Positions 4,111 through 39,713 of a DNA stretch of 64,000 bases are shown piece by piece. The position numbers were made by a program, and so were the translations under genes. The DNA is from Bdellovibrionaceae bacterium UBA3535 (lineage in GTDB: Bacteria; Bdellovibrionota; Bdellovibrionia; Bdellovibrionales; UBA840), in assembly GCA_002376845.1 (NCBI GenBank), contig DFOS01000024.1, forward strand, positions 246,532-310,531, read 5' to 3'. The first letter of the stretch is position 1, and every line of letters begins with the position of its first letter. The notes beneath the pieces were generated by a model. It was not told the origin of the DNA. It was given only the letters and a program-made list of their open reading frames with translations, and made no database searches.

Positions 4111-5637
4111 GTGTCGGAAGATACCCAACAAGAAGAAAAATCCAGCAAAACTCGTCCACGTAAAAAGGCTGTCGATCAAGAGTCTCGCTCTGACAATGAT
4201 AGCTCCGAGAGATCTCCCAGAGAGCACAAGCAAAAGCGCCGCTACGGCAAAAATAGTGGGTCTCAAGGAGGGCGTAATCGCAACAACAACTCCCGTAGAG
4301 ATTTAACCTCCAACATTGAGCAAAATGACTATTCTCCGCAAGAAATCGATGAGGACTTACAGGTGGAGTTAACCGAGGAAGAGAAAAAAGACCTCAGCTC
4401 AAAACATTTAAAGTCAAAAAACATTCAAGAGTTGGCAGATTTGGCGACAAAATTAGGTGTGGAAAATGCAGCCGGCTTAAGAAGACAAGATTTGGTATTT
4501 GAAATTTTAAGACGGGCAGCTAGGTTTGGCGATATATATGGAAGTGGATGTTTGGAAATCCTTCCGGATGGTTACGGATTTTTACGCTCTCCCGATTATA
4601 ACTACCTACCAGGACCAGATGATATTTATGTAAGCCCTTCGCAGATTCGCCGCATGGGCCTGCGCACAGGTGACTACGTAACGGGTACCATTCGCCCTCC
4701 TAAAGATGGCGAGCGCTATTTTGCTTTGCTAAAAATCGAGAGTCTTAACTATGAAGAACCAACAAAAAATAAAGAAAAGATTCTTTTTGATAACCTGACC
4801 CCTCTATATCCAGAGGAAAAACTAAATCTTGAGAACGAGCCCAATAACTACACCACGCGTGTGATAGATTTAATGGTTCCATTGGGTAAGGGGCAGCGTG
4901 CACTGATTGTGGCTCCTCCTAGAACAGGTAAAACAGTATTGATGCAAAATATCGCGAATGCGATTTCTAAAAATCATCCAGAGGTACAATTAATTGTATT
5001 ATTAATAGATGAGCGCCCAGAAGAAGTTACTGATATGGCGCGTACAGTAAAAGGCGAGGTAGTCTCTTCTACTTTTGATGAGCCGCCTACTCGTCACGTA
5101 CAAGTGGCGGAGATGGTTTTAGAAAAAGCCAAGCGTTTGGTGGAGCATAAACACGATGTGGTCATTCTATTGGACTCCATTACGCGTTTGGCGCGTGCTT
5201 ATAACACAGTTGTGCCGCCATCTGGCAAAATACTTTCAGGTGGTGTGGATTCCAATGCTCTTCATAGACCGAAGCGGTTTTTTGGTGCTGCCAGAAATAT
5301 CGAAGAAGGCGGTAGTTTGACCATCATATCCACCGCCCTTGTGGACACGGGCTCACGCATGGATGAGGTAATTTTTGAGGAGTTCAAAGGAACGGGTAAC
5401 GCCGAAATTCATCTAGACCGCAAGCTCATGGAAAAACGTATCTTCCCTTGTTTGGACATCAATAAGTCTGGCACTCGTAAAGAGGATCTCTTAATTGATA
5501 GCGCTGATTTGAATCGTATATGGATTCTGCGCAAAGTACTGGCGCCTATGAATGTGGTGGACTCCATGGAGTTTGTTCTTGATAAGATGTCTTCAAGCAA
5601 GACAAACGCCGAATTCATTAAGCAGATGAGCGGCTAA
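4111..5637 (+). CDS. rho: Transcription termination factor Rho with ~90-aa basic/polar N-terminal extension
   Basis: GTG start 7 nt after AAGGAG. Walker A PPRTGKT. The Rho core is conserved to the C-terminus. The first ~95 aa are R/K/S/N/Q/E-rich. Confidence 0.93.
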
Positions 5638-9245: not shown

Positions 9246-9578
9246 ATGACATGCATTTTTTGTAAAATTATTCAAAAAGAGATTCCTGCAAGCATTGTTT
9301 TTGAAAATGAAAATGTATTGGCTTTTAAAGATATTTCTCCAAAGGCTAAGACACATTTATTATTTATTCCCAAACAACATATTGAACGTTTGGACGACAT
9401 AAACAATGAGAACGAAGAAATTATTGCGCAGCTGTATTCGGCAATCATTGAGTTTGCAAAGAAAAATGATTTTATCGAGTCAGGCTACCAATGCAAAATT
9501 CATGTTGGCGCTGGTGGAGGGCAAGAGGTCTTTCACTTGCATATACACTTTTTATCACAAAAAGCTCTAAATGGTTGA
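9246..9578 (+). CDS. HIT family (histidine triad) protein
   Basis: C-terminal HLHIHF histidine triad; ~110 aa. Confidence 0.85.
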   Translation: MTCIFCKIIQKEIPASIVFENENVLAFKDISPKAKTHLLFIPKQHIERLDDINNENEEIIAQLYSAIIEFAKKNDFIESGYQCKIHVGAGGGQEVFHLHIHFLSQKALNG

Positions 9579-12342
9579 AGAACAAATACTCTGGTTACTT
9601 AAAGATGCAAACGGGAAAATATTCGGTCCCTATGAATATGAAAAACTATTTCAGTTTATAGAAAATGGTATTCTAGGTGGTGAAGAGCAAATTGCCGTAT
9701 ACCCAGATGGTGACTGGCAAGCCATTTCTCGAGACATGCAGCTCAATGAGAAATTACTAGAGCAGTTAGAAAAGCAACTAGAAAAACCTAGTGATGCAGA
9801 AAAAGAAGAAATTCTACAAAAAAGTGAAGTCTTCCAAGAACCGAGTGAAGAGGGTATAGCCGATGAATCTGCACGCGATGTCGGCACCTACATTCAGGCA
9901 GATGAGGATTGGGCAGAAGAGCCAGAAGAGGAGAAGGCCAACACCTCATCTGTATCCGTTTCAACAAGAACCATAGAAGTGAAGCAAAGAGGTTTAGATA
10001 AAAAAAGGTTCGGCCGTTTTTTAATCGTTATTTCCCTTTTAGCAATCGTATTCTTGCATCTTAGTGAAAAAGGCAGCTCTGAAAAGACTTCTTTAATCAT
10101 TGAGCCAAGAAAAACAAAAGAAATTTTGGAGAGCGCACAAGAGCAGCGTTCAAAGCTGATTCAAGCGATTAATTTTTACAAATTTGGAGAAAAGGAAAAC
10201 TATATATCTGCTCGAGATATTTTGGTAAATGCCGTAGAAAAGAACGCAAAAAATACAGATGCCCTGGCCTTACTTTGTCTTGTGTACAAAGAATTGTGGA
10301 GCTTTTCTGATAAAACATCTGCAGATAAATTGGTAATAAGTTCTTTAGTTCAAAGATCTACGCAAGTAGAAACTTTTTCTGCCCCAGCTATAACGTGTAA
10401 AAGTGTGCAGTCTTATTTACTTGGAGACTTTGCTGCAAGCAAACGTTTTACCCAAAGAGTATTAGAAGATGATGTAAATGCTGTTACCTTTTATTTTCTG
10501 TTGGCCGAAGTACATAGAAGCTTAGAGGAGAGGTCCAAAGCAATACAAAATTACCAGCAAGCATATCGCTTTTGGCCAGAATGGTTATTACCAAGAATTC
10601 GAGAAGGACAGATGCGATTACAAATGGGCCAAGTAAGCGAGGCAAGAAAAATTTGGTTACAAGTCTTGCAATCTAGTCGAGATAATGAATCCGCAGCAAT
10701 TTTATTAGCACATACGGACTTGTTTCAATACCAAGACATGTCTTCAGCAAAACATTTTATTAGCGCATTTCGTAAGACTAGCTCTCAAGCTGAGCCATCT
10801 ATAAAGGCCCGGGGCTTTGAAGTCTTAGCCTCTTTAGCAGAGCAAACAAGTGATGATTCCGCTGTAGATTATGCAAAACAAGCCTTACAGTTAGATAGTA
10901 GGTCGCGATATGCAAGGGCAATATTAGAGAATTTGGGTGATGGCGAAGTAATTAGTGTGAAATCTACTGCTGAGGCCTATATTGCTAGCGGTGATTTGCT
11001 TGCAAGCCAGGGTCGCTATGCTGATGCACAAGCGGAGTATAAAACGGCATTTGACCTAGACAATAGCAATTCTATGGCAGCCTTTAAAGCAGCTAGGGCG
11101 CTTTGGAATTTGGATCAACAAACAGAGGCCATAGCCTGGGTAAAAAAAGCCATCAATGTAGATCCGAAAAACTTTGATGCTGCTATATTATTGGCGGAAT
11201 TTTATGGTAAGCGATTTAACTTTCGTGAAGCATCTAAACAATTATTGAGAGCGCAAAAAATCAGTCCAAAAGATTACCGGGTATATTCTACGTACGCAGA
11301 TCTAGAATTTTTACGGCGCAACTATCCGTCGGCCATAAAGAATGCAGAATCCGCATTAAAATTATATGATGCTGATGTAGATTCCCTTTATGTTTTAGTA
11401 AATGCCCATTTGCAACTAGGAAATATTCGAGAGGCGCACTACGCAAGTTCCAAAGCAGTGGAACTAGAGGCAAACAATGCAGAGTCACAAACAAAATATG
11501 CTCTAACCCTATCAAAATTTCAAAGCCCCACGGCTGGCATCAATTATATAAAAAATCTAGTTCATACTTATCCCTCTAATTTGGAATACCGTATGGGGTT
11601 GGCCAAGGTCTATTATGAGAACGATAAATTTTCAGAAGCACTAGCTGTACTACAGCAAATTGAAAAATTGGTTAAAGATAAAAAGCCTTTGTATTTACTT
11701 ATGTCACAGATATATGAAGGTATGAATGATTATGAAAACTCACTAAAGTCACTTTTATCCACTGCTCAGCAAAGTCCTTCCGATCCTAAAATTTATTTTA
11801 AAATTGGTGTTTTGCAATATAGAGCTAAAAAGTATCAAAATGCTTTGGAGCAGTTTCTAATGACCAAGCAATTAAATGAAAATTACCCAACATTATATAC
11901 CCGCATCGGAGAGAGCTACTTAAAGCTGGGGCAATATGATAAGGCTATGCAAGCGGCACAAAAAGAAATTCGTAGAAACCCTAAATTGGCAGATGGCTAC
12001 TTGCTTGCAGGGGAAATTTATTTATCTAATGGTCACTATTCAAAAGCTGCAGGGCAATTTCAGAGAGTGATACAAATTAATCCAAACTCTGCCTACCTTT
12101 ACATAAAAATTGCTAGAGCACATCGTCTTGCCGGAAATTACGACTTGGCCAAGTCCATGTTGGCTGTTGCAGGAGAGAAAGAATCGGGCAATGCCGAAAT
12201 CTATAAAGAAACAGGGGCCTTGCTACAAGATACGGGTAACACGCTGGAGGCGATTAGTTCCTATAAAAAATATTTAAAATTGAGTCCAAATGCAGGCGAC
12301 AGAGAAGAAATAAAGAGTATAATAAGATCGTTAGGGGGCTAA
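9571..12342 (+). CDS. Membrane-anchored TPR repeat protein with N-terminal GYF-like domain
   Basis: N-terminal W..KDANGKIFGPYEYEKL...YPDGDWQAI resembles GYF_2/DUF4339. One TM helix (FLIVISLLAIVFL). About 700 aa of TPR-like repeats. Confidence 0.7.
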   Translation: MVEEQILWLLKDANGKIFGPYEYEKLFQFIENGILGGEEQIAVYPDGDWQAISRDMQLNEKLLEQLEKQLEKPSDAEKEEILQKSEVFQEPSEEGIADESARDVGTYIQADEDWAEEPEEEKANTSSVSVSTRTIEVKQRGLDKKRFGRFLIVISLLAIVFLHLSEKGSSEKTSLIIEPRKTKEILESAQEQRSKLIQAINFYKFGEKENYISARDILVNAVEKNAKNTDALALLCLVYKELWSFSDKTSADKLVISSLVQRSTQVETFSAPAITCKSVQSYLLGDFAASKRFTQRVLEDDVNAVTFYFLLAEVHRSLEERSKAIQNYQQAYRFWPEWLLPRIREGQMRLQMGQVSEARKIWLQVLQSSRDNESAAILLAHTDLFQYQDMSSAKHFISAFRKTSSQAEPSIKARGFEVLASLAEQTSDDSAVDYAKQALQLDSRSRYARAILENLGDGEVISVKSTAEAYIASGDLLASQGRYADAQAEYKTAFDLDNSNSMAAFKAARALWNLDQQTEAIAWVKKAINVDPKNFDAAILLAEFYGKRFNFREASKQLLRAQKISPKDYRVYSTYADLEFLRRNYPSAIKNAESALKLYDADVDSLYVLVNAHLQLGNIREAHYASSKAVELEANNAESQTKYALTLSKFQSPTAGINYIKNLVHTYPSNLEYRMGLAKVYYENDKFSEALAVLQQIEKLVKDKKPLYLLMSQIYEGMNDYENSLKSLLSTAQQSPSDPKIYFKIGVLQYRAKKYQNALEQFLMTKQLNENYPTLYTRIGESYLKLGQYDKAMQAAQKEIRRNPKLADGYLLAGEIYLSNGHYSKAAGQFQRVIQINPNSAYLYIKIARAHRLAGNYDLAKSMLAVAGEKESGNAEIYKETGALLQDTGNTLEAISSYKKYLKLSPNAGDREEIKSIIRSLGG

Positions 12343-20017: not shown

Positions 20018-20023
20018 TTTGCT

Positions 20024-20199
20024 AAAATAAAAAACCGCCAACACCTTTGGTGCTGCCGGTATTTTTAGTGGCGGAGGGGGTGAGATTGTTTCGGGCTCCT
20101 GCCCTCAACCCTTCGCAAAGCTCAGGGCTCCTCCGGAGCTTAAAAACACCATCCTGGTATTTTGATCGAACTCCGTGCATTGTTCCAATGCTAACCCAC
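20024..20199 (-). other. Duplicated tRNA-Ser(UGA) terminator plus last 19 nt of the tRNA, with a ~112-nt non-coding insert (divergent member of the tRNA-3'-end-linked element family)
   Basis: 20024-20087 repeats 20200-20265, with one substitution and a 2-A indel. The repeat covers the terminator hairpin and TGGCGGAGGGGGTGAGATT. ORF-track peptides MVLPVFLVAEGVR / MVLPVFLMAEGVR mirror the duplication. Confidence 0.6.
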
Positions 20200-20246
20200 A
20201 AAATAAAAAAAACCGCCAACACCTTTGGTGCTGCCGGTATTTTTAA

Positions 20247-20336
20247 TGGCGGAGGGGGTGAGATTCGAACTCACGAAGGGCGTGAACCCTTGCCAGTTTT
20301 CAAGACTGGTGCATTCAACCACTCTGCCACCCCTCC
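20247..20336 (-). tRNA. tRNA-Ser (anticodon UGA), CCA encoded
   Basis: Hand-folded. Acceptor GGAGGGG/CCCCUCC. Anticodon arm CCAGU-CUUGAAA-ACUGG. Long variable arm. T arm GUGAG-UUCGAAU-CUCAC. Confidence 0.9.
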
Positions 20337-34568: not shown

Positions 34569-37500
34569 TTATTGGCAAGTATATTCACTACAGGCTACGC
34601 GTACACCGTCACGGTTACTCACACAATCTCCAAGGGTGTAGCCACTTGGAACTTTAGAACAAGTGTCGCCGGAGGCCCCACAACTAGCTCCATTTCGTAC
34701 ATCACTCGCACACATCGGGGCGGGGCTTCCTATATCAAACGCACCTGTTCTTACCCAGCTTAGAGTGAATTCACATCCTGTCATCAGCCAGCTTCCGCTG
34801 GATTGACATTGATAGATACCTAAGTTGGGTTCTACACAGTTTCCGCTAGGTGCTCTTGCGCTGCAACAAGCATCGGTAACAGCGCGTTGAGTTTCTCCTT
34901 CGTTTGCTTCGTATAGGCCAGCAGGAATACTTCCGCTTGGTGGGATTGCAGCACAGGTGGCTCCAAGTGGCTCACAGCGTTTAGTAGATTCGCAAGGCTC
35001 TGGACCTGTCATCAACTTGGGAGTAGTGCAGCAAGCATCATCTACCACGGAACCAGTTCCATCCCAACATACGATATCACGAGTGATGGGTCCTTGAGGC
35101 GCATCGTCCACAACTCTTTCTGTCGCAGGGTCACAGCCTGGGTCTGGTGGGTTTTTACATTGTCCCCAGCTTACTGGCGACCATGGAGGAAGGTTCCATC
35201 CGTAAGGACCGTCATTGCAGACGCCAGCATCAGGCTCACAGCACTCTCTGCCGCCAACTATGGAGCAATTGGTTTCAAATCCTGCAGTTCGCTCTTGTGT
35301 GCCCCCGGGACAGGATCTTCTTCCACAGAACTGATCGGGCTCATTTTCAAAACAACTATCAAAGCCGTCGGGACTTGCAGGATCACACGTTTCTAAAGGA
35401 TCAGGACAAGGAGGCACCGCTGGCTCACATCCACAAGAATTAGCTGCAGTGCAAGCCGCATAGGCTGCGGCATCAAGACCTGTACCGCAAGGCGAACAAG
35501 GTCCTACCACTAAACAGGCCAACTCTTTGGCACAAACGGTATTGTTGCGTAGGGTGCAATCTTCCATATAACCATCATTATTACATGCAGCCAACGCGCC
35601 AGCACCGGTACCAGGGATCGTTGTTTCACCGGCTAGACAGGCTGTACCATCGCCGCCACCGCAGATGATGGAGTTCTCTTCCGGAGTGCCGGCACAAGCA
35701 ATGACTTCCTCACAGTCGCCGTATTCGGAATTGCATTCAGCCATACTGGCAACTTCGATTTTGGTTCCTGGACATGTGGGTGTTGCTGTACATGCAGCAG
35801 GCGGTGAAGGAGGTGGTGGTACGGCATCGCCGCAACCAGGAAATGGCGGGCAAAATGGGTCCACGCCATCTCCGGCAGGGGAGGCGTCAGGTGCACTACA
35901 AGTACCATAGTCTTCTACTACAGTGGTGCCCGAGGATGATTTGTTATCATAGGTATTGGTTGTTTCCTCGGTACATGTTTCTCCGCCATACCCATCTGGA
36001 ACACAGACCTCTTCGGTTTCCGTTTTTCTACATTTTCTCTTCCTAGTGCATGGAGCACCTTCGTAGTCGCCGGGGTGATTGCTTGTATCAATAGATATAA
36101 AGTCGGCATCACAAGGTGGAGGTGTTGGAGCGACACATCGGTAGGAATCACCTATACATTCACTATCTTGCGTGTCGTTTTCACACAAATCACCTGTGGA
36201 ATCGGCATAACAATTATTAGGTCCTTTTGTCCAAACTACGCTCTCAGCCTTTTTACAAAAACCTGTTCCTGGAGCCAGGTGGTCGCAAACATAGCCGCTT
36301 GCGCATGATACCGAGCTACAAGAATTCGTGACTCCATCGTCATTTCCTCGAACTTCATATTCAGCATAGGCAGATTTTAAATAGCGGCCGCAACCATCTG
36401 CTATATGATAACAAAAGCCGCCGGCCCCGGTGGTGTTTTGGTGGCAACCACTAGGAGCTTCCCAACTTGGTGTATCGCAATTTCCTGCGCCTGAGGTAAC
36501 GTCAATTACTTCGGGATCGCCCGTGATAGTACTACCATTAAATTGTGGACAAGCCACTGCAGTAGGTAGGCGAGATCCGCTACTTGGCCCCACTTCATGG
36601 TTGCCATTTACCACACCGCTTGCAACAGAAAAGTTAATGCTGGCACCTGTGCTTGTAAGCTGTTTTACACCGCCGCCTGGGTTGGGCACATTCAGGTCAT
36701 CGGGAATATCAGCAGTCCATGTTTCTCTTGGACTTTCTGGGCCATTACCACATAGGTCACAGGATATACCAACGGCTTCATATTCACCGCTTTGACTGAC
36801 GTTTTGTAGATTCGTATTGCCGCAGGTAGCAGTTACGCCGCTGCCGCTAACACCAGAAGCCACACCCGTATCTTTTGGCGTAACTTCGATAGGTTCAGTT
36901 CCCGGGCTTGCGGTCCAAGGTGCTGTACCGCCACTACACTGAAAGGCATCTCCCAATACTCCATCAATGCCAGGGAATAAGGCGGCATTTGAGCCCAACC
37001 AGTCAGATGGGGCGGCCACTCTCAGGGCACCCGAAGTAGGTTGGTTAACCGAAGCGGGCCCTGGACGATTCAAATCCACTCCCACATCGTAAGCTCTTGA
37101 AGCACTTACACCAGAGGTAATGGTGGCATTTCTTGCAACATCAATTTCCATTACATGGAAGCGGTAAAAGCCTTCTTGGGTATTGGTCACCTCAAGGCTA
37201 AAGCCGTTTAGCATTACAGATTCGGCGGTAATTACGCCACCACCAAAATTTGCACCCAGGCCGCAAATGAACCAACCAGTGGAGGTAAAAGCGGTGGAGC
37301 CATTTTCATTTTCAGCATGGTCCATTCGGCAAAGAACTTGTGAGCCATTGCCAATGCCGCTTACGCGGTAGCGAAAACCAGGTCTAGTTCCTGGTGTTCC
37401 GCATAGATAGCGGTCCATTCGCTGATCCGCTAAAGAAAGTGGTTCCCATTCAATGGTCAAAGGATCGGGCGGATTGGGCAAACGGCCCGGCTTTACATTA

Positions 37501-38291
37501 ATGGTAGTTTCGCAAACTTTTCTTTGATCCGCGTTCAATGGTAGATAGCTAAGGCGCAAGCTCACACGGTAGGATCGATCATGTGTTGTCGGCGCATCAG
37601 GGTTATTGTTCATAATTAATGGATTAAAGCGACTTGGTGCATTGGCAGCTGCATAATCAATGGTGCCACCTGTGTCTTCCACTTCAATTTGCGCTTCCAC
37701 ACGAGGATTGTCCATCCCGCCAATGTACTGCATGGCTATTTGAGATAAAAAGTCATCGCCAGCAGCACCGTTGCCATCGGGATCTGTTGGGTTGCCATTA
37801 TTAACCAGGACAAATTCTGCACCGTTAGTATTATGATAAATGGGAGTCAGTAAAGTTGAGGCGGAGCGAACTAGCTGCCAGTTATTGGCTCTTTGTGCTG
37901 CGATACCTATATTGTTCCAGTCCCAATTGCGAAAATTATCTCCGGTGTTAGCACTAATTTGCATTTCTGCCGCTGGATAGGCAATTTCTGTTGTTTCATC
38001 GACATTCATATGCAGCATATTGTAAGTGATGGGATAATCTAGTTCAGCTGTAGGGTCCAATCTGCCAGGACCTGGAAGCCAAGAGTTGATCAGACCATTG
38101 TTATCCCGGGCTTTGATGGCACCCACCATAGACTGCAATCGAACCGAACAGGTACTAGAGGATTCTAGCTTCTTGCTGTCTTCATTGGAATTTACAATAT
38201 AACTAGATGTAACAAGGGCAACGCCGGCTACCATAGCAGCGGCCATCATTGCTTCTAAAAGGTTCATACCCTTGTTATTATTGATGAACAT
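34569..38291 (-). CDS. Giant (1240 aa) cysteine-rich protein with type IV prepilin-type N-terminus
   Basis: N-terminus MFINNNKG/MNLLEAMMAAAMVAGVAL has Gly at -1, Glu at +5 and a hydrophobic helix. I count 74 Cys, 69 of them after about residue 450. G+C is visibly higher than in neighbouring genes. Confidence 0.75.
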   Translation of the reverse strand: MFINNNKGMNLLEAMMAAAMVAGVALVTSSYIVNSNEDSKKLESSSTCSVRLQSMVGAIKARDNNGLINSWLPGPGRLDPTAELDYPITYNMLHMNVDETTEIAYPAAEMQISANTGDNFRNWDWNNIGIAAQRANNWQLVRSASTLLTPIYHNTNGAEFVLVNNGNPTDPDGNGAAGDDFLSQIAMQYIGGMDNPRVEAQIEVEDTGGTIDYAAANAPSRFNPLIMNNNPDAPTTHDRSYRVSLRLSYLPLNADQRKVCETTINVKPGRLPNPPDPLTIEWEPLSLADQRMDRYLCGTPGTRPGFRYRVSGIGNGSQVLCRMDHAENENGSTAFTSTGWFICGLGANFGGGVITAESVMLNGFSLEVTNTQEGFYRFHVMEIDVARNATITSGVSASRAYDVGVDLNRPGPASVNQPTSGALRVAAPSDWLGSNAALFPGIDGVLGDAFQCSGGTAPWTASPGTEPIEVTPKDTGVASGVSGSGVTATCGNTNLQNVSQSGEYEAVGISCDLCGNGPESPRETWTADIPDDLNVPNPGGGVKQLTSTGASINFSVASGVVNGNHEVGPSSGSRLPTAVACPQFNGSTITGDPEVIDVTSGAGNCDTPSWEAPSGCHQNTTGAGGFCYHIADGCGRYLKSAYAEYEVRGNDDGVTNSCSSVSCASGYVCDHLAPGTGFCKKAESVVWTKGPNNCYADSTGDLCENDTQDSECIGDSYRCVAPTPPPCDADFISIDTSNHPGDYEGAPCTRKRKCRKTETEEVCVPDGYGGETCTEETTNTYDNKSSSGTTVVEDYGTCSAPDASPAGDGVDPFCPPFPGCGDAVPPPPSPPAACTATPTCPGTKIEVASMAECNSEYGDCEEVIACAGTPEENSIICGGGDGTACLAGETTIPGTGAGALAACNNDGYMEDCTLRNNTVCAKELACLVVGPCSPCGTGLDAAAYAACTAANSCGCEPAVPPCPDPLETCDPASPDGFDSCFENEPDQFCGRRSCPGGTQERTAGFETNCSIVGGRECCEPDAGVCNDGPYGWNLPPWSPVSWGQCKNPPDPGCDPATERVVDDAPQGPITRDIVCWDGTGSVVDDACCTTPKLMTGPEPCESTKRCEPLGATCAAIPPSGSIPAGLYEANEGETQRAVTDACCSARAPSGNCVEPNLGIYQCQSSGSWLMTGCEFTLSWVRTGAFDIGSPAPMCASDVRNGASCGASGDTCSKVPSGYTLGDCVSNRDGVRVACSEYTCQ

Positions 38292-38438
38292 AATTCCTCT
38301 ATATATTAAGTATTATCGGGAAGTATCTGATAGAACTAAAGCCTTTTGCTAAAAAAAGGTCTAGCTTGTCTTTTTTTGATACATTCATGGTGGAAATAAA
38401 AAAAGCGCTAGTACCCAAAGGAAGTACTACCGCTTAAA

Positions 38439-38571
38439 TGGCACGCTCGGAAGGATTCGGCCAAGCGCTCGCATTCGCATCAGGCTCCTGCTCCGCCTGG
38501 CCACCCCGAAAGCCTTTCGCCGTCATCCAGACGGCTCACCCTTACGGGCGGCTTTCTCCCTTCGAATCCTT
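38439..38571 (-). other. tRNA-3'-end-linked structured element, copy at tRNA-Arg (candidate ncRNA or mini integrative-element scar)
   Basis: Starts AAGGATTCGAAGGGAG. Ends with 21 nt identical to tRNA-Arg from the T-loop to CCA. Followed by a second copy of the tRNA terminator. Homologous to 39573-39713 with compensatory changes. Confidence 0.6.
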
Positions 38572-38624
38572 AGATATTTAGAAAAAAAAAGCGCTAGTAC
38601 CAAAAGGAAGTACTACCGCTTAAA

Positions 38625-38701
38625 TGGCACGCTCGGAAGGATTCGAACCTCCGACCACTTGATTCGTAGTCAAGTACTCTATCCAGCTGAGCTACGAGCG
38701 C
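38625..38701 (-). tRNA. tRNA-Arg (anticodon ACG), CCA encoded
   Basis: Hand-folded. GCGCUCG acceptor (G1-U72). Anticodon arm CUUGA-CUACGAA-UCAAG. T arm GGAGG-UUCGAAU-CCUUC. Confidence 0.88.
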
Positions 38702-38785
38702 ACGAGGCCAAGGGATACGAAAAAAGCGTCGTAAAAGCAAGAAAAGATGAGTGATTTAGAGTATTTTCTGTAATATTATGAGCAC

Positions 38786-39427: not shown

Positions 39428-39519
39428 GGAGAGGTGGGTGAGTGGCTGAAACCAGCGGTTTGCTAAATCGCCGTACGGGTCATACCGTACCGAGAGTTCG
39501 AATCTCTCTCTCTCCGCCA
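39428..39519 (+). tRNA. tRNA-Ser (anticodon GCU), CCA encoded
   Basis: Hand-folded. Acceptor GGAGAGG/UCUCUCC. Anticodon arm GCGGU-UUGCUAA-AUCGC. Long variable arm. T arm GAGAG-UUCGAAU-CUCUC. Confidence 0.9.
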
Positions 39520-39533
39520 TTAAAATAAAATAA

Positions 39534-39557
39534 GGTCAGCCTGGCTGGCCTTTTTTT
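39534..39557 (+). terminator. Terminator of tRNA-Ser(GCU)
   Basis: GGTCAGC/GCTGGCC stem (one G-U pair) followed by T7. Confidence 0.7.
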
Positions 39558-39572
39558 ATTTTAATAGTTGAA

Positions 39573-39713
39573 AGAGATTCGAAGGGAGAAGTCTGGCCAG
39601 CCAGTGGCTGGTGAGTGAGCGTGATGCGAACGAAAAGACTTCGGGGTGGTCAGGAGGAGCATGAGCGTGAAGCGAATGCGAGCTCTTGACCGAATCTCTC
39701 TCTCTCTCCGCCA
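39573..39713 (+). other. tRNA-3'-end-linked structured element, copy at tRNA-Ser(GCU)
   Basis: Starts AGAGATTCGAAGGGAG. Ends CGAATCTCTCTCTCTCTCCGCCA, which is the tRNA 3' end plus one extra CT. Shares blocks GATTCGAAGGGAGAA, TTCGGGGTGG and GCGAATGCGAGC with the tRNA-Arg copy. Confidence 0.6.

Follow-up and report, generated by a model that had tools for sequence, protein, structure and literature searches.

RtT, or rttR, has been known since 1978–1991 and has been treated as an oddity of enterobacterial tRNA-Tyr; we know of no explanation for its origin or its function. Its structure has covariation support, including support for a helix framing a tandem GA (PMC8250186), the rttR RNA was demonstrated experimentally (Bosl & Kersten 1991, as cited in PMC3318445), and its mode of action is still termed unknown (bioRxiv 10.1101/2024.07.17.603846). 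The present analysis concerns a window of 64,000 nucleotides (nt), by which is meant the whole stretch of contig DFOS01000024.1 that was analysed, from an uncultured marine bacterium, assigned to Bdellovibrionota through its GmhA homologues, whose nearest available relatives have GmhA proteins 82% and ~74% identical to its own. In this window a tRNA-Arg(ACG) gene is followed by a 133-nt structured segment, and we put at about one half the probability that the segment is one of two paralogous copies of an RtT-type unit: a tRNA-tailed structured RNA appended to a tRNA gene.

RtT was tested as a candidate on the sequence of the E. coli tyrT locus (L024). That locus holds four RtT units, scoring 133–137 bits against the Rfam model RF00391 (gathering threshold 45 bits). 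Each unit closes with the final 19 nt of tRNA-Tyr, a copy that begins within the T-loop, and carries upstream the sequence GGGGAAGGAT, the exact complement of ATCCTTCCCC in the tRNA copy; this 10-nt complement was matched in 0/5000 shuffles. In the RF00391 consensus GGGGAAGGAT and ATCCTTCCCC form a closing helix, within which come a GAGAA junction and an inner helix around two hairpins, and beyond which the CCA tail is free. The model is 130 nt long and the E. coli DNA unit 178 nt.

At the Arg locus of the window, a first-pass annotation made from the letters alone had described, in order along the minus strand, the tRNA, its terminator, a spacer of about 10 nt, a 133-nt segment and a second terminator, and all of these sequences and coordinates check out (Table 1). 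The segment begins AAGGATTCGAAGGGAG, and its last 21 nt are, as described, identical to tRNA-Arg from C56 in the T-loop to CCA. A repeat search likewise recovered the complementarity reported between the two ends: AAGGATTCG, which makes up the first 9 nt, is matched by its exact reverse complement, CGAATCCTT, within the 3′ copy, giving an inverted repeat of 9 nt within the segment and 11 nt against the full tRNA. Both hairpins named in that annotation, GCCC-GUAA-GGGU and GCCGUC-UGGAU-GACGGC, are present in the segment. Its one error of detail concerned the terminator, which is indeed repeated almost exactly, but with one substitution (TTTTGG vs TTTGGG) and a T-run of 9 vs 7 rather than the one-base indel reported. 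Taken together, tRNA 3′ end and terminator form a direct repeat of 62 nt, 61/62 identical by local alignment, at a spacing of 186 nt.

GC content is 65% in the core of the segment and 41% in the window as a whole. As had been claimed, no open reading frame (ORF) accounts for it: the sole ORF across it encodes 47 amino acids (aa) on the plus strand (38438–38581) and has no relative among 5.8 billion proteins, a search that also yielded no candidates for further copies miscalled as genes. Independent assemblies of the species from JGI, ENA, TARA and Logan gave an identical sequence for the unit, which is therefore no assembly artefact. At this locus a perfect 9-nt complement occurs in 73/5000 shuffles of the segment, and the single-sequence fold has a z-score of only −2.3; the real support comes from a second, homologous copy at tRNA-Ser(GCT).

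This second copy, missed in the first-pass annotation, was found by BLAST of the Arg region against the window. It begins AGAGATTCGAAGGGAGAAG and finishes CTCTTGACCGAATCTCTCTCTCTCTCCGCCA. Its extreme 5′ end, AGAGATTCG, reads as the reverse complement of the 3′ copy that the element carries. Its 3′ end is CGAATCTCTCTCTCTCTCCGCCA; the tail consists of the 21-nt 3′ end of tRNA-Ser plus an extra CT, and the first 9 nt complement the T-loop/T-stem part of that tail. Local alignment of the Arg and Ser(GCT) cores gave a score of 78, compared with 16.9 ± 2.4 for dinucleotide shuffles. By sequence, therefore, the cores are clearly homologous, but both ends differ and each is fitted to the local tRNA, AAGGATTCG...CGAATCCTT accompanying the Arg tail and AGAGATTCG...CGAATCTCT the Ser tail. 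Each copy lies ~53 nt past its tRNA, beyond the terminator, and on the same strand as the tRNA; no terminator belonging to the Ser(GCT) copy follows its CCA. Read on the reverse strand, each element starts with ATGGC (GCCAT in reverse complement), which gives rise to artefact ORFs of 47–52 aa at 38438–38581 (+) and 39556–39714 (−).

A 3′ end of 21 nt of tRNA sequence and a core bounded by a 9-nt inverted repeat might be expected of a decayed tRNA duplicate, or of a miniature inverted-repeat transposable element (MITE) with 9-bp terminal inverted repeats. Either origin is very improbable here. ARAGORN and Rfam recognised neither a tRNA nor a transfer-messenger RNA (tmRNA) in the element, and its 5′ arm is an exact complement of the 3′ strand, including an A opposite T60 and the tRNA's G·U position, rather than a copy of the 5′ strand of the T-stem. 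From one copy to the other the inverted repeats have changed in a matched manner, for which selection by a shared transposase would not account; a target-site duplication is lacking, and the 64 kb plus 17 kb of flanks yielded no further copies. Readings of the element by eye as a hammerhead, a group II domain V or a CsrA sponge were rejected, the motifs concerned not being conserved between the two copies.

The two copies share a fold. In both, a closing helix P1 is followed by a conserved purine junction, AAGGGAGAA, then by helix P2 with two hairpins inside it (P2a and P2b), a junction CGGGGU and a long hairpin P3. P1 pairs the first 8–9 nt of the element with the T-loop/T-stem part of the tRNA 3′ copy, and the acceptor strand plus CCA (12–14 nt) is single-stranded beyond it; for the Ser(GCT) copy this architecture is also the minimum free energy (MFE) fold. 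One common structure was placed on the two-sequence alignment A3, with P2a left out of pair counts. In this structure 97.1% of the 34 pairs are paired, as against 25–40% in slid controls in which the 3′ partners were moved by 1–3 columns. Eleven pairs vary: nine have changed on both sides and still pair (P1 2, P2 3, P2b 2, P3 2), none has changed on one side, and the other two break, forming a tandem G·A/A·G. Where the copies share long identical runs, these occupy the unpaired junctions (GATTCGAAGGGAGAA, CTTCGGGGTGG and GCGAATGCGAGC). With its conserved G·U pairs the tRNA-sense strand is 10–13 kcal/mol more stable than its complement. A covariance model, R1, built from the two copies, scores them at 157 bits (Arg) and 167 bits (Ser(GCT)). 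The pattern of change in P2, P2b and P3 is of the kind that selection acting on a folded single strand gives, and is not what a protein-binding arm or a decaying scar would yield.

Conservation of structure would also suit an ordinary small-RNA gene, free-standing and equipped with a promoter and terminator, in which the tRNA-like end arose as a by-product when the locus was duplicated and plays no part in the RNA. An end of terminator-like or other type does lie downstream, and the AT-rich spacer upstream could hold a promoter. It is improbable all the same, since both copies carry, at the same position, the 3′ end of their own tRNA together with a matched 5′ complement, which is unlikely to arise twice as a by-product. 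Moreover, a promoter-like site was not found, and the Ser(GCT) copy lacks the terminator that such a gene should possess.

The RtT-type reading takes in the tRNA-derived end and the fold together. Like the E. coli units, each element follows directly 3′ of a tRNA gene, in the orientation of that gene, and ends in a copy of the tRNA 3′ end that begins within the T-loop and closes with CCA (the copy is 19 nt long in E. coli, 19–21 nt here). At the Arg and Ser(GCT) loci, as in E. coli, a 5′ segment complements the tRNA copy, forming a closing helix that leaves the CCA tail free; there follow a purine junction of GAGAA type and a helix enclosing two hairpins, a likeness to the Rfam consensus that was judged by eye and not scored. 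The RNA part is ~130 nt in each case and the units are of similar length (178 nt in E. coli, 178–192 nt here). Units stand in tandem in E. coli; here they do so only in one contig of the species, L004, possibly as an effect of assembly. The first-pass annotation had recognised no named RNA family in the segment. An Rfam search bore this out, returning only tRNAs from the Arg, Ser(GCT) and Ser(TGA) regions even at E≤10, and the statement holds for sequence and covariance models; it fails in that a named analogue of the same design, RtT (RF00391), does exist.

A third unit with the same layout was found at tRNA-Ser(TGA). Its repeat comprises the last 19 nt of the tRNA plus the terminator (64–66 nt), in copies 178 nt apart that differ by one mismatch and by 2 nt in the T-run. 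The 112-nt middle shows no significant similarity to the Arg and Ser(GCT) cores (60/500 shuffles), model R1 gives no match in the unit, and the best complement of the middle to the 3′ copy is 6 nt, which is not significant. No polymorphism was seen at this locus within the species. Three of the four tRNAs in the window therefore carry a unit of 178–192 nt (178, 186 and 192 nt) starting in the T-loop, with no repeat unit behind the remaining gene, tRNA-Asn(GTT). All three repeat junctions lie in the T-loop, 19–21 nt from the tRNA 3′ end, and at two loci the repeat extends exactly to the end of the terminator T-run. No further tRNAs were found on extending the search past the window, by 10 kb on the left and ~7 kb on the right. 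The region past the right end (L029, 1–9000) encodes a pilus cluster of Tad/type-II-secretion-like type (prepilin peptidase, RcpC, secretin, ATPase, T2SSF) and, after it, an RHS/YD-repeat protein.

Searches beyond this species returned no further members. Model R1 recovered only the two copies when run on the window, the 17 kb of flanks and every other locus compared. A scan of 185,579 species genomes for CGGGGT..GAGCA..GCGAATGCGAG gave four matches, all of them chance occurrences in GC-rich coding DNA without tRNAs, and a scan of JGI metagenome contigs for TTCGGGGTGG..GCGAATGCGAG gave nine chance matches without tRNAs and did not return the source contig itself. Motif scans of viral sequences, and BLAST against phage and plasmid collections, gave no matches. 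Empty sites, which the first-pass annotation had raised as a comparison to be made at tRNA-Arg, were present in the relatives L010–L014, where the synteny tRNA-Arg / gmhA / tRNA-Ser is kept and there are no units, these being distant relatives (GmhA ≤82% identical). A decayed copy of the element in L010 was considered and rejected, the flank past the terminator not being similar to the element (76/1000 shuffles). Among contigs of the species itself no empty site was seen. The assembled unit number differed, at 1.33 in the window and in L001 and L002, and 2.33 in L004, a TARA scaffold in which two perfect tandem 186-nt units follow tRNA-Arg (9468–9786), reflecting either real copy-number variation or an assembly effect. 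Contigs L003, L005 and L033 break within the repeats.

Table 1. Features of the three tRNA-linked units, in window coordinates. Helices P1 to P3 and the free tail are given for the Arg copy.
Feature	Position	Strand	Basis or detail
tRNA-Arg(ACG), complete gene	38625..38701	-	ARAGORN; Rfam RF00005, 65.1 bits
Trailer, terminator hairpin + T9, repeat copy 1	38582..38624	-	sequence; within 62-nt direct repeat
10-nt AT-rich spacer (ctaaatatct)	38572..38581	-	sequence
Arg copy of structured element, 133 nt	38439..38571	-	fold; pair counts on alignment A3; model R1
tRNA-Arg 3′-end copy, T-loop C56 to CCA, 21/21 identical	38439..38459	-	
Trailer, terminator hairpin + T7, repeat copy 2, one substitution vs copy 1	38398..38438	-	
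Arg P1	38571-38564 with 38458-38451	-	
Arg P2	38555-38550 with 38514-38509	-	
Arg P2a hairpin	38549-38538	-	
Arg P2b hairpin	38535-38519	-	
Arg P3	38502-38494 with 38467-38459	-	
Arg free tail	38450-38439	-	
tRNA-Ser(GCT), complete gene	39428..39519	+	ARAGORN; Rfam
Native trailer, terminator (hairpin 39532-39552 + T-run), spacer	39520..39572	+	terminator scan; L010 comparison
Ser(GCT) copy of structured element, 141 nt	39573..39713	+	BLAST; alignments; MFE fold; model R1
C-terminal stump (~75 aa), large serine recombinase gene	39681..39908	-	phmmer; Pfam on relatives; hidden Markov model, 85 bits
tRNA-Ser(TGA), complete gene	20247..20336	-	ARAGORN
Third unit, same layout	20024..20265	-	repeat copy 1 20265-20200 (tRNA 3′ 19 nt + terminator); middle 20199-20088; repeat copy 2 20087-20024

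Beside the Ser(GCT) copy lies the remnant of a recombinase gene. A 113-aa ORF at this point matches, over its first 64 aa, residues ~455–520 of proteins 520–550 aa in length (phmmer); the full-length proteins have the Pfam domains Resolvase, Recombinase and Zn_ribbon_recom, and so are large serine recombinases. The stump takes its tail from the tRNA 3′ copy of the element, read on the reverse strand, with a Trp codon corresponding to CCA. The full-length members (~530 aa) show the same relation to tRNA genes: they end ...W(R/L)xxRDSNP..., the last ~12 codons being the reverse strand of a tRNA 3′ end (TGG = CCA, and RDSNP = GGGTTCGAATC, in the T-arm). One such gene extends across the final ~40 nt of a complete tRNA-Asn beside housekeeping genes (L034, 4555–4630), and another overlaps a partial tRNA-Ser copy (L026, ~5566–5596). 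A hidden Markov model of the family found the stump as its only match in the window, with no remnant near the Arg or Ser(TGA) units. In a public assembly (L001) the called 113-aa gene is a fusion of one of the artefact ORFs to this stump.

The T-loop position of all junctions, together with the serine recombinase stump, indicates that site-specific recombination probably shaped these loci. At Ser(GCT) the native terminator, which is orthologous to that of relative L010 (2/1000 shuffles), is still in place behind the complete tRNA, and the stump overlaps the distal, element-borne copy; because of this we infer that the element was there first and that an island later landed in its pseudo-tRNA end. 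The core was also considered as the standard attP arm of this recombinase family, and rejected, since it is absent beside family members in L026, L034 and L025. In the last of these, from a sister lineage, a fragment of an IS66-family transposase interrupts, towards the N-terminus, a stump 94% identical to that in the window (L025, 3–611 and 667–918), and of the tRNA copy only ...ATCCGCCA is left beside it, the core being absent. In L014 (3811–5098) tRNA-Ser(GCT) is followed by a tyrosine integrase and an HTH_17 excisionase, and in L012 (3842–4428) by a ParE/Phd toxin–antitoxin pair, which marks this tRNA as an island hotspot across the group.

These observations bear most directly on the possibility that the units are features of the DNA only: either integrase-less, att-bounded mini-elements that are cis-mobilizable, or the scars of islands, the repeats being attL and attR, the ~110-nt core an arm adjacent to attP, and the fold incidental or of service to recombination. 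Such an origin would account for the T-loop junctions, for relatives whose syntenic tRNAs lack units, for the presence of one or two units within one species, and for the same layout around a middle without significant similarity at Ser(TGA). The overlap of the stump with the Ser(GCT) 3′ copy, and of intact relatives with tRNA 3′ ends, is also as expected, and there are precedents in the ssrA islands of Dehalococcoides (PMC3146451) and in tycheposons (bioRxiv 10.1101/2020.12.28.424599). It is nonetheless a rather unlikely explanation of the Arg and Ser(GCT) elements taken as a whole. Nine double compensatory changes with no one-sided change are unexpected in a protein-binding arm or a decaying scar; the core is missing beside members of the same recombinase family in L026, L034 and L025; no recombinase remnant lies near the other two units; and the retention of the native terminator at Ser(GCT), with the recombinase abutting the distal copy, fits an island entering a pre-existing element better. 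In addition, a 186-bp circle is very small for excision, and the similar unit sizes (178, 186 and 192 nt) speak against random remnants of deletion.

Both readings offered in the first-pass annotation thus survive in part. That of a scar or attP arm, crossing over in the T-loop, is upheld in its T-loop junctions, its empty sites and the recombinase stump, and has against it the absence of the core beside the members of the recombinase family compared and the four helices kept through double substitutions. That of an RNA gene with a tRNA-like 3′ tail gains from the compensatory changes and the RtT-like architecture, but between tRNA and element stands an intrinsic terminator, and no promoter was found. 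The RtT-type and DNA-level readings are, moreover, not exclusive, since the units may have arisen by recombination and later been retained for a putative RNA.

Several results weigh against the RtT-type reading. RF00391 gives no match at E≤10 on 38350–38760, 39540–39730 or 20020–20260, and model R1 does not score E. coli RtT, sequence similarity being at shuffle level; in the absence of cross-scoring in either direction the likeness is one of architecture, and could be convergent or over-read. The layout of the Ser(TGA) unit around a dissimilar middle suggests that the process making the repeats does not need the Arg/Ser(GCT) core. An intrinsic terminator stands between tRNA and unit here, whereas the E. 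coli units are co-transcribed without one, and a scan found no sigma-70-like promoter. Shuffle z-scores are similar on both strands, so that the choice of strand is weakly supported. Finally, the covariation signal comes from two sequences, both from one genome, and since the 3′ strand of P1 is fixed by the tRNA, the two compensations in P1 could also arise under a DNA-level model.

Were the RtT-type reading correct, transcription of the tRNA-sense strand would come either from polymerase reading past the tRNA terminator or from a weak start within the AT-rich spacer, and would stop at the second terminator. The last 21 nt of the Arg element and its trailer duplicate those of the tRNA, and the 3′ end would for that reason probably be trimmed back to CCA by the tRNA 3′-maturation enzymes. 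P1 would hide the extra T-stem/T-loop strand from the folding of the real tRNA while presenting a tRNA-like CCA tail. The units themselves may have been seeded by site-specific recombination in the T-loop, and amplified through unequal crossing-over or re-integration.

A more far-reaching proposal, which we regard as distinctly doubtful, is that RtT-type units are a recurrent and unrecognised class of tRNA-tailored elements, moving between tRNA genes on T-loop-specific island recombinases and retuning both ends as they do so. The 5′ end of the core would then rebuild the T-loop/T-stem duplex of the host, much as CTX phage, in the form of a folded single strand, rebuilds a dif site, and the pseudo-tRNA end would act as a decoy landing site, into which an island appears to have landed at the Ser(GCT) locus; such elements might also yield a CCA-tailed RNA.

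One further gene adjoins the Arg unit. Just downstream of it (34569–38291, −) is encoded a 1240-aa cysteine-rich protein with a type-IV-pilin-like hydrophobic N-terminus and no Pfam match; relative L010 has another gene in its place.

Among other known systems, 3′ETS-leuZ of E. coli is a small RNA cut from the 3′ external spacer of a tRNA transcript. The elements described here resemble it in that a non-coding RNA, putative in this case, lies in a tRNA trailer and may be released by tRNA-processing nucleases; small RNAs of that type, however, are not known to carry a tRNA 3′-end copy or a helix closing onto one, and here a terminator intervenes. With tmRNA and other tRNA-like molecules they share a 3′ end made up of T-arm-derived sequence, acceptor strand and CCA, but they have no 5′ acceptor strand or acceptor stem, and their T-loop is sequestered in P1.

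The likeness to tRNA-borne islands is closer at the level of DNA. In the ssrA islands of Dehalococcoides a serine recombinase of ~540 aa lies next to attL, insertion is in mid-T-loop with a 20-bp repeat, islands may be in tandem, and there are integrase-less, cis-mobilizable elements (PMC3146451); marine tycheposons show tandem integrations parted by partial tRNAs, and fragmented integrases (bioRxiv 10.1101/2020.12.28.424599). Here, too, the whole tRNA bounds the unit on one side and a direct repeat of the 3′ part of that gene on the other, with the junction in the T-loop; tandem units are possible, a recombinase on the opposite strand abuts the repeat at Ser(GCT), and decayed integrases and partial tRNAs have been left behind. 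The present units differ in being geneless, at 178–192 bp, and without an integrase of their own, and in including the host terminator in the repeat at two loci. Their core, unlike an island's, keeps its secondary structure through compensatory changes, and was not seen beside intact members of the recombinase family.

Compared with RtT itself, the element is a lineage-restricted variant of an RtT-type, tRNA-linked repeat, found in Bdellovibrionota rather than Enterobacteria, and behind two or three tRNAs (Arg and Ser), with ends retuned at Arg and Ser(GCT), rather than behind tRNA-Tyr only. Its closing helix is built from T-loop and T-stem, where that of E. coli uses T-stem and acceptor strand; its 3′ hairpin domain, P3, is larger; a terminator also follows the unit at the Arg locus; and the Tpr-like ORF is absent. 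An RtT design in a distant phylum, without sequence similarity and with its ends retuned behind two tRNAs, suggests that the design itself has been selected or repeatedly generated. On the RtT-type reading the design is thus no accident of enterobacteria, and it is physically tied to serine-recombinase islands specific for the T-loop. It would also provide a second, independent system in which to ask what RtT-type units do, the candidate roles being those of a tRNA-like, CCA-tailed RNA, an insulator of the duplicated tRNA end, or an att decoy.

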